This document shows positions 13,751-61,096 of a stretch of 64,000 nt of DNA, one piece after another. Source of the stretch: a bacterium. GTDB lineage: Bacteria > Babelota > Babeliae > Babelales > GCA-2401785. A program made the position numbers and the translations under genes. Below the pieces are notes generated by a model. The model was not told the DNA's origin, made no database searches, and saw only the letters and a list, made by a program, of their open reading frames with translations. How positions within the stretch are numbered: position 1 is the first letter of the stretch; every line of letters begins with the position of its first letter. The stretch covers positions 4,094 through 68,093 of the forward strand of contig JAHFBP010000004.1 of NCBI GenBank assembly GCA_023249975.1, given 5' to 3'.

Positions 13751-13785
13751 CTGAGTGTTTTTCGTAAGAAAAATGTATCGAAGGG
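13751..13785 (+). repeat. partial copy of the palindromic intergenic repeat arm
   Basis: CTGAGTGTTTTTCGTAAGAAAAATGTATCGAAGGG matches the arm consensus CTGAGTGTTTTGTGAAACAAAATGTATCGAAGGG. Confidence 0.75.
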
Positions 13786-13905
13786 TTATCAAGCAGAGTG
13801 CTAATTTAACTCCACCACTAGTCCAATATTTGAATGTCAGCTATCTTGTCCCACAGCCGAGCAGCCAAGATGTTGTGCTTGTGTACCGTAGTGGGGTCAG
13901 AAGAG

Positions 13906-16071
13906 ATGAGCTATTGCCGCATTCAGAACCGATTTTTAGCGGTTTCTTTATTGATTTTATCAGGAAGTTTTCAGCTGAGCGCAGCAGATGCGGGGCCAAT
14001 TCGTGAAGTTTTTGTTCCGGGGTATGAAGATGCACCACAACGCAAAGCTTCATCGCCTTTTCGGAAATATGAGCCATTACGTCACAAAATAACTATCAAG
14101 GACAAAGATACCGAATTGTTTATTGGGGGGAATATTAGGTCTGATATGTACCGAGTGTACCATCCAACGACCCTGCAGAATGACACAGATGACGAAATTG
14201 ACACCTGGCGTCAACGGATTGAACTCGGTTTTATGCCCAAAATGGGAAAGAAAACATACGGCCGCACGGCACTAGAAGCTAAAGTGTTAATGGGAGGTGT
14301 GTTTTTCTGGCGTACACGTTGGACAAAACAATACGGAAGGTATGAAGGGCCCATTACGGCCCAAGATAATGTAACCCCTCCGGTTACTATGCAACTTAAA
14401 GAAGGGTGGATAAATCTGCATTTGGACACTCTGTTTGAGACGTTTGAAAACCGCCCACATCAATTTAAAATAGGTTTTTTCCCTTATTATGTCGGCCGAG
14501 GTATTTCGCTCGGTGACTGGACGGCTGGAGGCGTGTCTTATATGGGTTTTACGCGATCTGGGGTTCAGCAACAAATGGCGGAATATCCTCCAGGTATTGT
14601 TTTGGAAGGGGAACTTCCATACAACATTAAATATGATATTTACTACAGCCCTATGGTGAGTGAAGACGTTAATCAATTTGTGCAAGATACACGATCAAAT
14701 CGTATTATCGTTCCCGACAAAACTGCTAATTCACGGCATATTGTGGCGGGGCGCATCAAGTATGAAGTTGAACCAAGCGAGAATTCTCGAGTTTTATTCG
14801 AACCATATTATGTATATTACAATTCTCCACGCCAAACCCTTCAGACGCCTGGCGATGCGCCAACTCGTTTTTCCACAGTGGGGACGATGATTGACGGTCA
14901 GGCTGGTTGTATTAAATTTAACTGTGAATTTGCCGGCCAATTTGGGCGCCAACGCGTAAAAGAGGTGGGAATTAATATTGGAAATGTGAACAATACCAAG
15001 CAAATTGCATTTGGACAGCAACCGGATGGAGTAACGCCTTTGGCTGCTTTTGGTGGAATGGTGGGGCCTGGACCTGGAGTTGATTCGGTTTCAAATATTT
15101 CTCTATTGTCCCAAAATTCCGATTATGACAATGCTTTTGCTGCAACAGCCGCGAATGTTTCTCAATTTTATACTGACTATCGTCCAGGGTATGACTTGAA
15201 CCTTAAGGGCCGCATGTTCTTGCTCGATGCATGTTACGAACCAGAAAACGCACCAGTACGACTTTCAGCATCCTATGCTTATTTTTCTGGTGACCGATTT
15301 CCTCACAATGATCCTGTTGATAAATTTCTTGCAGGTGAAGAAGGTTACACTTCTCGGGATAATGCGCGCCTTGCGCCCGTGGAAAAACGAAATAAAGACT
15401 ACAATGGCTTTTTGCCATTGCGTGATTATGATTATCGTGGCTTGTGGGCAAAACCGCTCATATTCTTTAATGCTGGCGTGATTCCTCGTCCACAAAATAT
15501 TGATATTGGCTCGCTTCAAGCGGAAAATGACGCTGATACGACAACTAATTTGACCTCAATCGGAGGTGGAATTACCTGGTGGCCCATGAAAAAACGAGAA
15601 AAGTTGACACTCAATGCTAACTTTTTTTGGCATCGTGAAAATGCACAGCATTACAAATGGATTACCGGCTTGAATCAACCGACAGAAATTAACAAAATTG
15701 TGGTGGCAGATGGCGACAGCGTAAAAGGTTGGTACGACCTCAATCAGCCTGCGAGTAAGTCGCTGGGATTTGAGGCAGACCTTGTCATTGACTACAAGGT
15801 TAATGACAATTGCTATACCTCAATCCGTATGGGTGCATTCTTCCCGGGTCAGTTGTACACTGATCTTGCCGGCCAACCTAATATTAACACCAATAGGACC
15901 AATAATATTTTAGTGAATGTGGGCGATGCGCGTGCTCCAAAAGCGGTTGTGGCGACTCCAGAGGTTTCAGATACCATTGGTGCTAAAAAAATCGCATCAG
16001 TAAGTGATGTGGCGGGTCTTGGAACTGATGTTGCCTATGGTTTTTATATTCGCGTGGCTTATTTATTCTAG
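13906..16071 (+). CDS. outer-membrane beta-barrel protein (porin-like), family unassigned
   Basis: Signal peptide MSYCRIQNRFLAVSLLILSGSFQLSAADA from the Met at 13906. The protein is aromatic/Gly-rich and ends YIRVAYLF with a terminal Phe, typical of BAM substrates. Confidence 0.65.
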   Translation: MSYCRIQNRFLAVSLLILSGSFQLSAADAGPIREVFVPGYEDAPQRKASSPFRKYEPLRHKITIKDKDTELFIGGNIRSDMYRVYHPTTLQNDTDDEIDTWRQRIELGFMPKMGKKTYGRTALEAKVLMGGVFFWRTRWTKQYGRYEGPITAQDNVTPPVTMQLKEGWINLHLDTLFETFENRPHQFKIGFFPYYVGRGISLGDWTAGGVSYMGFTRSGVQQQMAEYPPGIVLEGELPYNIKYDIYYSPMVSEDVNQFVQDTRSNRIIVPDKTANSRHIVAGRIKYEVEPSENSRVLFEPYYVYYNSPRQTLQTPGDAPTRFSTVGTMIDGQAGCIKFNCEFAGQFGRQRVKEVGINIGNVNNTKQIAFGQQPDGVTPLAAFGGMVGPGPGVDSVSNISLLSQNSDYDNAFAATAANVSQFYTDYRPGYDLNLKGRMFLLDACYEPENAPVRLSASYAYFSGDRFPHNDPVDKFLAGEEGYTSRDNARLAPVEKRNKDYNGFLPLRDYDYRGLWAKPLIFFNAGVIPRPQNIDIGSLQAENDADTTTNLTSIGGGITWWPMKKREKLTLNANFFWHRENAQHYKWITGLNQPTEINKIVVADGDSVKGWYDLNQPASKSLGFEADLVIDYKVNDNCYTSIRMGAFFPGQLYTDLAGQPNINTNRTNNILVNVGDARAPKAVVATPEVSDTIGAKKIASVSDVAGLGTDVAYGFYIRVAYLF

Positions 16072-16184
16072 TTATTTTTTGTATCCATTCGATACCTGTT
16101 CGACAGCGGCTAAATAGCCTTTGCTAGGGCGAACGGAGTGTAGCCACTTGTGGTGTAATCGAATGGGTATCGGACGGATACAAC

Positions 16185-60049: not shown

Positions 60050-60182
60050 AAGGGGGCTCTGTGTTAGATTTTAGTGGGTGCATAACTGCTAAAAATTCTA
60101 TTATGAAAAATAATTATACTAATTTGTTTGGTAGTTGCAATAAGAAAATCGCCTGAGTCATTAGTTGTAAGATAATTTTTTT

Positions 60183-60974
60183 TTAAAAGCCGCGGAGGCT
60201 TTCGTGGTCAATCAGTGAGCAAATTTCGATTGATTCAAGATCAATGAGTGGGGTGAGGGTCAGGATTCCTTCGGTCAAATCATCATGTTTTGATTCAATT
60301 TTGCCGATACAAAACCCTTCGGGTACCACCAGCCCCGATCCGCTGGAAAGGACGATGTCTCCGAGCATGACATTGGCATGTTTGTCCACATGCCGCATCA
60401 CGCATTGATTTTTGATACATTGTCCCTCAGTTATGCCGTTGAGCAAGCCAGTGGCAGTGTGGGCAGAAATTTTGCATCCCGGGTCGCTGATAGCCAAGAC
60501 TTTGCAATAATGATCAAAAACTTGAACAACTTTACCAATGATTTGAAACTTATAGACGGCGGTCATGCCAGGCGAAACACCTTTGTTTTTGCCACCTGAG
60601 ACAAGAAGTGAGTGTTCGCATTTGTCTGTGAGGCACCTGGACAGTATTCGAGCTTGTGGGGCATTTTTGAGATCATAGCGACGCTGAAAGTCAAAGAGCT
60701 CTTGGCTTCGGTTTTGAAAATCAAGAGATGCTGTCAGTTTGGCGTTTTGAAATTTGAGGTATTCGTTTTCTTCGCGTAGCCCAGCAAATCGACTGGCATT
60801 GGCGTGAGCATCAGCCCAACGTTGTCCCATCCAGCGCAGTGGACGAGCGCAGAAATTGGCGCTGACCAAAACCGGGTACATGGCTGTGTGGACCGCATGG
60901 GTTACGGCAGGTGGAATGGGGAGGTACATAAAGCTGATGGCCAGTGCGGTAAAAATGAGAAATTTTTTCAGCAT
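60183..60974 (-). CDS. mreC: rod shape-determining protein MreC
   Basis: N-terminal TM segment, coiled LREENEYLKFQNAKL, and C-terminal IVLSSGSGLVVPEGFCIGKI. The Met at 60974 is preferred, because the upstream extension is repeat-derived. Confidence 0.85.
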   Translation of the reverse strand: MLKKFLIFTALAISFMYLPIPPAVTHAVHTAMYPVLVSANFCARPLRWMGQRWADAHANASRFAGLREENEYLKFQNAKLTASLDFQNRSQELFDFQRRYDLKNAPQARILSRCLTDKCEHSLLVSGGKNKGVSPGMTAVYKFQIIGKVVQVFDHYCKVLAISDPGCKISAHTATGLLNGITEGQCIKNQCVMRHVDKHANVMLGDIVLSSGSGLVVPEGFCIGKIESKHDDLTEGILTLTPLIDLESIEICSLIDHESLRGF

Positions 60975-60996
60975 GTGGGCCCCCTTAAATGTCGGA

Positions 60997-61096
60997 CCCT
61001 TCGATACAATTTTTCTGTGAAAAAACACTCAGGGCATGCGTGGCGTAGAAATCCGCATGCCCTGAGTGTTCTCTGTCAGGAGAATGTATCGAAGGG
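60997..61096. repeat. palindromic intergenic repeat, two short arms facing (60997-61040 / 61054-61096)
   Basis: CCCTTCGATACAATTTTTCTGTGAAAAAACACTCAGGGCATGCG, a 13-nt spacer, then CGCATGCCCTGAGTGTTCTCTGTCAGGAGAATGTATCGAAGGG. Confidence 0.9.

Follow-up and report, generated by a model that had tools for sequence, protein, structure and literature searches.

The 64-kb stretch of DNA analysed here (the whole of it is called the window below, and arm coordinates are window positions) contains a family of short palindromic repeats lying between the genes of a bacterium of the Babelales. We found seven arms, which form three inverted pairs and leave one arm single, together with one diverged unit at 16.08 kb. 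An earlier note, made by reading the sequence, had proposed that an arm of about 42 nucleotides (nt) occurs seven times. Seven arms do lie at or near the places it gave, but the 42-mer it quoted matches only two of them (at 47512 and 32580) within 3 mismatches, where no match is expected. The three inverted pairs and the single arm are borne out by the sequence, by a repeat finder, which joins all 7 arms (families D4, D7-D9 and D15; inverted pairs I2-I19), and by a covariance model trained exclusively on foreign sequences, 34 in number, which recovers 5 of the window arms with E values between 8e-14 and 6e-7, and parts of the two long arms.

Every arm is made of CCCTGAGTG, followed by a variable hairpin and by (Y)GTATCGAAGGG; the motif can also be written CCGCATGCCCTGAGTG...GTATCGAAGGG. 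Read on their own strands, the arms are (CC)CGCATG-CCCTGAGTG-[TTTTG..CAAAA / TTCTC..GAGAA / TTTTTC..GAAAAA]-(T)GTATCGAAGGGT. The two flanking blocks are common to all of them, while the stems of the central hairpin vary by compensatory changes. When at most one mismatch is allowed, GTATCGAAGGG occurs 8 times in the window for 0.49 expected occurrences.

The single arm, A1, is a short one on the forward strand (13743-13786; family D4; covariance model E = 6.1e-7), consisting of CTGAGTG, the hairpin TTTTTC GTAA GAAAAA and TGTATCGAAGGGT; the 5' CCC of its stem P1 is substituted, and CCCTaTTCG/CGAAGGG is a possible alternative P1. At 32.4 kb, the long arm A5 on the reverse strand (32385-32469; families D7, D9 and D15; partial match with the covariance model at 32390-32419) is separated by 104 nt (32470-32573) from the short arm A2 on the forward strand (32574-32622; E = 5e-12). 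At 47.5 kb, the short forward-strand arm A3 (47503-47554; E = 7.8e-14), an exact copy of the 42-mer mentioned above, lies 20 nt from the long reverse-strand arm A6 (47575-47658; family D7; partial match with the covariance model), and the 5' extension CCCACCACCCGCATG of A3 pairs with the far end of A6. At 61.0 kb, the short arm A7 on the left (60994-61046, reverse strand; E = 7e-9) is followed by the short arm A4 on the right (61049-61099, forward strand; E = 3e-11), whose hairpin, TTCTC/GAGAA, departs from the hairpins of the remaining arms through compensatory substitutions. The geometry of the pairs differs from locus to locus, as had been said: the arms converge at 47.5 kb and diverge at 32.4 and 61.0 kb. 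Folded as DNA, the 61.0-kb pair gives a four-way cruciform of -39.8 kcal/mol (z = -12.5).

The insertion which the two long arms had been reported to share is real and measures 29 nt (32421-32449 in A5, between the CCCTG and the AGTG of the core motif, and 47610-47638 in A6), the two arms being 90% identical across 70 nt. It is a side hairpin, CCTGTCCGCCATAGCCTTAGCGACGGAGG on the arm strand. A sequence identical to it at 27 of 29 positions is found at the same place of a long arm in an unrelated metagenome-assembled genome (MAG; L020, 3675-3705), and a related CTGCCCGCCATAGCC... sequence is present in other loci (also L078, L113 and L117), including a lepA relative of the window organism. It is possible that this side hairpin represents a third repeat of the small structured kind, or else a conserved variant with a three-way junction.

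Two degenerate relics had also been suspected, and they fared differently. The first (16081-16172, forward strand) is a genuine diverged unit of the long type, made of P1, a side hairpin containing AUAGCC, AGTG, the P2 hairpin and TAATCGAATGG, with GTATCGAATGG at 16085-16095. Its P1, CCATTCGAT/ATCGAATGG, differs from CCCTTCGAT/ATCGAAGGG by a compensatory change, it folds as DNA at -19.7 kcal/mol (z = -4.96), and it occupies the entire spacer between two genes. As the covariance model gives no match with it, we regard it as a divergent or decayed copy. The second (46149-46161, forward strand) is a possible relic of the 5' half only (CTGAGTGTTTTTG), with no 3' half found nearby; it is the one 13-mer match beyond the true arms, for 0.27 expected, which makes it indistinguishable from chance, and it is not established as a copy.

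All the copies of the window are intergenic. A2 ends 26 nt before the ATG of yicC (32649), A7 begins 19 nt upstream of the start of mreC (60974; identified as MreC by Pfam), and other copies lie 65 nt before a MerR/HspR-like gene and 47 nt before a putative outer-membrane protein gene (Alginate_exp match). The proximity of copies to these four starts, already pointed out in the earlier note, is thus confirmed. Since the same copies are equally near the upstream stop codons (12-50 nt after those of yebC, gatA and lepA, A4 ending 12 nt from the stop of gatA), this proximity reflects the shortness of the intergenic spacers. The spacer between gatA and mreC is identical in a second assembly. The spurious N-terminal extensions and phantom open reading frames (ORFs) attributed to the copies are seen as well.

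A strict pattern, CCCTGAGTGN{14,19}GTATCGAAGGG, was scanned over one genome per species. Given the 20 bases that it specifies, the six gap lengths that it allows and the number of nucleotides scanned, about 6 chance matches were expected by our own estimate, whereas at least 114 genome stretches of many phyla were matched (the 114 motif loci mentioned below are stretches among the matches listed for this pattern). The listed matches include Dependentiae/Babeliales, Fibrobacterota, several families of Bacteroidota, Alpha-, Beta- and Gammaproteobacteria, Desulfobulbus, Myxococcota, Armatimonadota, Cloacimonadota, Marinisomatota, Acidobacteriota, Spirochaetota/Leptospiraceae, Dehalococcoidia (Chloroflexota) and Peregrinibacteria (candidate phyla radiation). 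The covariance model finds 194 copies in the 746 kb of the motif loci, against 2 weak, non-significant matches in a 614-kb control made of the loci around lepA from 80 other bacteria. The hairpin family is pan-bacterial, with an almost invariant core, and is not specific to a species. A search of the literature for the core 10- and 11-mers, on both strands and written as DNA or RNA, found no paper in the collection searched. The phage contigs of IMG/VR contain 0 matches with the motif, and a phage origin was set aside. As to the idea that the similarity is due to chance or to a local duplication within the window genome, nothing speaks for it except that the window holds few copies, and it is already refuted by the zero matches expected in shuffles and by the hundreds of foreign copies with covariation, so that we give it practically no credit.

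In some loci the motif is repeated head to tail (L030:18-1258, L071, L031 and L110), with 49-nt units in more than 16 copies around a GIY-YIG nuclease gene in an Armatimonadetes MAG, and with 216-nt units in a Flavobacteriales MAG. Models based on inverted pairs do not explain these arrays.

The repeated unit consists of a lower stem, CCCT/AGGG, with a flanking extension that varies, of an asymmetric internal loop in which GAGTG is opposite (Y)GTATCGA, and of an upper stem; its core measures 35-40 nt (18-20 nt in the mini forms described below) and its conserved flanks are asymmetric. The sequence of the hairpin between the blocks differs nearly everywhere, yet it always pairs. In 141 distinct copies, 94.3% of the cells pair, against 74.9% in shuffles, and both-sided changes are observed in 11 of the 13 pairs; CCCT/AGGG covaries too (C:G to U:A 7 times, U:A to C:G 4 times). 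Fourteen bases of the loop, including 5' G-A-G-U and 3' G-U-A-U-C-G-A, are invariant in all 141 copies. To judge from these bases, the internal loop probably contains tandem sheared G·A pairs (TGAG/CGAA, in a Y-GA-R context), and it can be drawn with a 3-nt bulge. Among the triloops of the upper stem, 49 of 62 are GNA, mostly closed by C:G; the mini-hairpin d(cGNAg) is said, after Hirao and Yoshizawa, to be exceptionally stable in DNA.

Functional RNAs typically show what is seen here, two covarying stems with an invariant internal loop between them. Hence one could suppose that the motif is a structured RNA, such as a protein-binding hairpin of the kink-turn (K-turn) kind, a stabiliser or processing site of messenger RNA, or a new small ribozyme, and that the transcripts of the sense arms are functional. 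The loop can indeed be drawn, by inference, in the manner of a K-turn with tandem G·A pairs and a 3-nt bulge, the conserved U·G and G·U positions are strand-specific, and tandem arrays such as the 49-nt units of L030 exist. However, single copies between co-directional genes of other genomes point in the same direction as the genes 19 times and in the opposite direction 17 times, and because this orientation is random a cis-regulatory RNA is unlikely. In these genomes an inverted partner lies no more than 200 nt away for 125 of the 235 copies; both geometries occur, as do combinations of short and long arms like those of the window. In an RNA, such a pair would trap the motif in a long duplex. 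Rfam 15, whose families include all known ribozymes (hammerhead, twister, pistol and hatchet among them) and riboswitches, gives only tRNAs at gathering thresholds, and at E values up to 10 only spurious matches with microRNA hairpins and CRISPR repeats. Compared by eye with the core, neither the hammerhead (CUGANGA/GAA), loop B of the hairpin ribozyme and the sarcin-ricin/loop E motif nor the tRNA T-arm, domain V of group II introns and 5S rRNA fits it. In addition, cGNAg triloops are a stability motif of DNA, and the characterised nuclease which serves as a precedent below, SsnA, does not touch RNA (PMC11893778). An RNA motif thus seems to us quite improbable. The inverted pairing in both geometries, the long duplex it would form in RNA, the random orientation and the cGNAg triloops argue for an element acting at the level of DNA. 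The earlier note had left the choice between elements of the REP/MITE type and regulatory RNAs: the first half of this alternative stands as far as the general class is concerned, which is REP-like (imperfect palindromes between genes, either alone or in inverted doublets of both geometries and, elsewhere, in arrays), and the second is not supported, given the random orientation, the predominance of inverted pairs, the lack of any Rfam match and the cGNAg triloops.

We looked for a gene associated with the repeat. In the 114 motif loci, an all-against-all clustering of the ORFs of at least 100 amino acids (aa) gave no obvious partner, but the genes described here, which encode GIY-YIG proteins of 97-99 aa, fell below the cut-off of this first clustering. 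A Pfam scan of the small ORFs bracketed by copies revealed such a protein in each of two unrelated loci, and a profile search found the GIY-YIG family (PF01541, E about 1e-16) in 7 of the 114 motif loci, from at least 4 phyla (Fibrobacterota, Armatimonadota, Gelidibacter, Aequorivita, Alteromonas and two unclassified MAGs). In all 7, copies of the motif lie within tens of nt on both sides of the gene, which at L030 is placed inside the array of more than 16 copies. A single GIY-YIG match, weak and unlinked, comes from the 80 control loci.

The reciprocal test used 14 homologue loci fetched by means of the protein alone. Nine of them carry the motif or a mini form without hairpin (CCCTGAG..TCGAAGGG), only the downstream copy being clearly detected in one of the 9, against a background of 0.026 per kb for the general core pattern. 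In Aequorivita capsosiphonis, copies flank the gene on either side, one of them 6 nt after its stop; a Bacteroidota contig from JGI has a copy 10 nt after the stop; in Methylobacterium bullatum and M. aquaticum, TCCTGAGGTG-hairpin-CCTCGAAGGA flanks the gene on both sides. The 5 further loci have mini forms on both sides, namely cgttcgCCCTGAGCGAAGTCGAAGGG in Sphingomonas parapaucimobilis, TCCTGAGCTTGTCGAAGGA in Altererythrobacter, CCCTGAGCCTGTCGAAGGG in a sphingomonad, CCCTGAGGTATCGAAGGG in Syntrophobacter, which is the motif of the window deprived of its upper hairpin, and GGCTGAGGYTCTCGAAGCC in Kuenenia. The usual order is motif, gene and inverted motif 6-30 nt after the stop, that is, the convergent geometry of the 47.5-kb pair of the window with a gene in its spacer. 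The proteins have about 95-110 aa and a single domain; residues Y7, Y17, R27, H31 and E64 are invariant in 12 aligned proteins. The proteins of this family match PF01541 only in Pfam and no NCBIfam family. Many homologues come from very short contigs or lie at the end of one, which is what repeats that break assemblies should produce.

The fact that the gene is always inside clusters of repeats or in the spacer of a convergent pair could also be read in another way: the repeats would be an independent host or selfish element (a cruciform, a binding site for gyrase or a nucleoid protein, or something terminator-like), and the GIY-YIG gene would be a free-standing endonuclease gene of the homing type which uses the repeat as an insertion target, the nuclease neither maintaining most copies nor acting on them. 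The Kuenenia gene, inserted inside a type I restriction-modification operon, and the homologues without repeats are in agreement with this. On the other hand, in sphingomonads of different species the gene keeps one chromosomal place, between rnc and era, and two sets of contigs, 17 and 19 drawn from different samples, each reduce to one and the same neighbourhood (with which 2 of the 17 overlap on one side only), as would be expected of a single-copy gene that is stably inherited; the variants of the motif change with the lineage of the protein, for instance mini forms in sphingomonads and GGTG..CCTCGAAGG in Methylobacterium; and the characterised precedent, SsnA, cleaves the repeat which flanks it (PMC11893778). 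We hold it to be unlikely that a homing gene merely targets an independent repeat.

Some of these loci deserve a description of their own. In the sphingomonads (L206:1597-1866; L213:2501-2893; L214-L219), the fixed place of the gene on the chromosome, between rnc (RNase III) and era, suggests that it is stably inherited and domesticated and not hopping; in L213, the GIY-YIG ORF runs through two copies of the repeat and acquires a C-terminal extension. In the Kuenenia MAG (L195:2418-6881), the gene and its mini repeats are inserted between hsdM and hsdS, and a Y1_Tnp/DnaA_C gene lies just upstream.

The family itself, its structure and covariation, its spread across phyla, its physical linkage to GIY-YIG genes and the intact catalytic residues of their products are direct observations. 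As to the repeats of the window, we think it probable that they are gene-less copies of this pan-bacterial DNA hairpin repeat, and that the repeat serves a small Ssn-like GIY-YIG nuclease as its cognate site. In such a system each arm, on one strand of DNA, would fold as an imperfect hairpin whose lower stem is followed by an asymmetric, invariant loop and by a freely covarying upper stem usually capped by cGNAg, and it would be the recognition element of the single-domain nuclease of about 95-110 aa. By analogy with SsnA and its repeat, called NTS, the nuclease would bind the folded motif in single-stranded DNA, strand-specifically, and nick nearby. The single strands could come from replication, transformation, conjugation or the extrusion of cruciforms, and the outcome would be the restriction or modulation of incoming single-stranded DNA, a spread of the repeat driven by nicks, or both. 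The gene-less inverted pairs of the window would then be a non-autonomous form comparable to REPINs or MITEs, passengers of the intergenic spacers and not regulators of yicC, mreC or hspR, and the nuclease would presumably be encoded elsewhere in the genome of the window organism. The DNA-type cGNAg loops and the strand-asymmetric conserved wobble positions are indirect hints that single-stranded DNA is what is read.

Several points weigh against this interpretation. Single arms of the window are thermodynamically weak as DNA (-3 to -4.4 kcal/mol, z from -0.1 to -2.0). There is no GIY-YIG ORF in the 64-kb window nor among the genes called in about 4 kb past its left edge, so that the link with a nuclease is, for this genome, an extrapolation. 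Among the 14 homologue loci, 5 lack the motif: two Legionella plasmids, S. paeninsulae, a Chryseobacterium-like locus with a relic only, and one gene at a contig end. The binding and cleavage of the present motif are postulated on the precedent of SsnA and NTS. Our GIY-YIG proteins may belong to the Ssn clade (cd10448) or to the neighbouring UPF0213/SLX1-like group, their nearest solved relatives being the UPF0213 proteins 1ZG2 (E = 2e-12) and 1YWL (E = 4e-10). The published generalisation of NTS, the SRM pattern HGTCWYN(0-2)YYVSBRHN(0-5)WNVSBRGN(0-2)RNCYNB, has 0 matches in the window or beside the GIY-YIG genes studied. Finally, mobility is inferred, as neither a pair of empty and filled sites nor a target-site duplication was found: at the lepA locus, the nearest relatives in metagenomes (LepA identity 64-73%) are without the element, and this comparison yielded no boundaries or target duplication.

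The relic of the Chryseobacterium-like locus (L196:4910-4940, upstream of the GIY-YIG gene) is TTAGATACAATTTTTCTGTGAG. It has 18 consecutive bases in common with arm A7 (GATACAATTTTTCTGTGA), even though the upper hairpin varies freely in the rest of the family.

A bolder version of the preferred interpretation can be put forward tentatively, and we would not go so far as to bet on it. The repeats and their nucleases might form an undescribed second specificity class of Ssn-like systems, in which a pan-bacterial CTGAG...TCGAAG hairpin, with its tandem sheared G·A pairs and its optional upper hairpin, is read in single-stranded DNA by a distinct clade of GIY-YIG proteins of about 100 aa, with variants (full, mini and GGTG/CCTCGAAGG) which co-evolve with the enzyme; the pair would police incoming single-stranded DNA or propagate the repeats, and the published search based on SRM would have missed the whole class. 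If this is true, the Ssn paradigm, a tiny GIY-YIG enzyme reading a folded motif of single-stranded DNA, is broader than was reported in 2025, with a second and structurally different class of motif in at least 12 phyla, reduced host-associated lineages such as the Dependentiae included. It would then supply new pairs of enzyme and site for single-stranded DNA tools, and it would explain a large class of unexplained intergenic palindromes which break metagenome assemblies and produce false ORFs and false N-terminal extensions. It would also provide a testable handle on the persistence of repeats, which may restrict single-stranded DNA or spread by themselves. Lastly, it would call for caution in motif discovery in the style of Rfam, since an invariant loop between covarying stems can be a signal of DNA.

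As for the organism, the window belongs to a metagenome contig of 99,456 nt (ENA ERZ27296333), which encodes F-box, LRR-RING (leucine-rich repeat and RING finger) and HEPN proteins. These proteins are eukaryote-like, and we therefore believe that the bacterium is probably host-associated or intracellular, which agrees with the many matches of the motif in Dependentiae. Its LepA is at most 73% identical to any in the metagenome collection. The leucine-rich repeat units are encoded by six copies of an 84-nt tandem repeat (10706-11377, in the ORF 10718-11758 of the reverse strand), and the same protein has the RING finger. The window also contains three pairs of tRNA genes, Cys-Leu (23148-23344), Leu-Lys (27414-27690) and Arg-Arg (57052-57233). 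As the GC skew is positive over its whole length, it probably lies inside one replichore.

It remains to compare the family with known elements. It has in common with the REP, BIME and REPIN elements that its imperfect palindromes lie between genes, come in short and long variants, and stand alone, in arrays or in inverted doublets of either geometry; the three pairs of the window are themselves intergenic inverted doublets in the manner of REPINs. Like the systems formed by REPs and RAYTs, it includes an enzyme gene in single copy flanked by its own repeats. This resemblance could lead one to believe that the repeats are classical REPs or REPINs moved by a RAYT (Y1 HUH transposase, IS200/IS605 kind), all the more so as L195 has a Y1_Tnp gene 2.6 kb from its repeats. 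Yet neither the GTAG nor the CGTC tag (PMC3733652) is present at the foot of the hairpin: profiled column by column, the 141 copies read CCCTGAGTG and GTATCGAAGGG, and no GTAG appears. Among the ORFs of the 114 motif loci (blocks of at most 8 kb), no Y1 transposase recurs beside the copies, GIY-YIG being the sole recurrent family. Moreover, known REPs are specific to a lineage, while the present core is identical across phyla. We thus find it very improbable that a RAYT mobilises these repeats.

The CGTC-tagged palindromic repeats (Di Nocera et al. 2013, PMC3733652) form a comparable super-family of tagged stem-loop repeats in many prokaryotes, including the dRS3/NTS type of Neisseria; they differ from ours in tag and structure, and no CTGAG/TCGAAG class is listed among them. 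MITEs (Correia, ERIC, RPE and others) are likewise small non-coding palindromic elements of intergenic regions, with short and long variants and artefactual ORFs. Unlike them, our family has pairs of both geometries, and its conservation is structural, carried by covarying stems, and not that of recent copies; we found no fixed terminal inverted repeats with target-site duplication, and no direct repeats flank the three pairs of the window. On a smaller scale, the P2 loops, mostly cGNAg, recall the mini-hairpin d(GCGAAGC), and the invariant TGAG/CGAA agrees with Y-GA-R, the context in which tandem sheared G·A pairs occur, the loop with its 3-nt bulge resembling the drawing of a K-turn RNA. Both likenesses are read off the letters, and they concern structural building blocks, not families of elements.

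The closest system is that of the Ssn enzymes (Chenal et al. 2025, Nat Commun, PMC11893778), single-domain GIY-YIG nucleases of about 94 aa (cd10448) which bind their hairpin repeat solely as single-stranded DNA, strand-specifically, and cut it a few nt upstream. The ssn gene is flanked by its repeat, of which a genome has hundreds of copies, and the system of Neisseria, whose repeat NTS is CGTCATTCCCGCGMAVGCGGGAATCYRG, modulates transformation; no second class of motif was reported in that work. Both systems have a hairpin repeat of 20-50 nt with conserved flanks which give it an orientation, many intergenic copies, often clustered, a gene for a single-domain GIY-YIG protein of about 94-110 aa between inverted copies, a repeat core nearly identical in distant phyla, and an enrichment in host-associated bacteria. 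The flanking of the gene on both sides holds in our 7 motif loci and in 9 of the 14 loci fetched by protein (with a clear copy downstream only in one of them), and does not apply to the window. The catalytic Y, Y and E are at positions 7, 17 and 64, against 6, 17 and 64 in SsnA, a near equality which is suggestive.

The repeats themselves are distinct. NTS and SRM consist of (C/T)GTC, a perfect palindrome and CYRG, generalised as HGTCWY..RNCYNB, whereas the present motif, which has both a lower stem and an internal loop, consists of CCCTGAG(TG), a hairpin and (YGTA)TCGAAGGG; the sequence of the palindrome matters in NTS, while the upper hairpin can be dispensed with in our family, as the mini forms show. 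The only matches with SRM in the motif loci are separate repeats of the NTS type (for example TGTCATTCCCGCGAAGGCGGGAATCCAG), found in three loci (L067:1988-2057 and 6704-6731, L085:5004-5031, L095:5758-5828) from MAGs of Bacteroidetes, Dehalococcoidia and Myxococcota, where they adjoin arms of the present motif or lie between them. Hence two families of hairpin repeats can reside together and interleave. To judge from this comparison, the family looks like an undescribed relative of the Ssn nuclease/repeat systems, built on the same logic around a different element.

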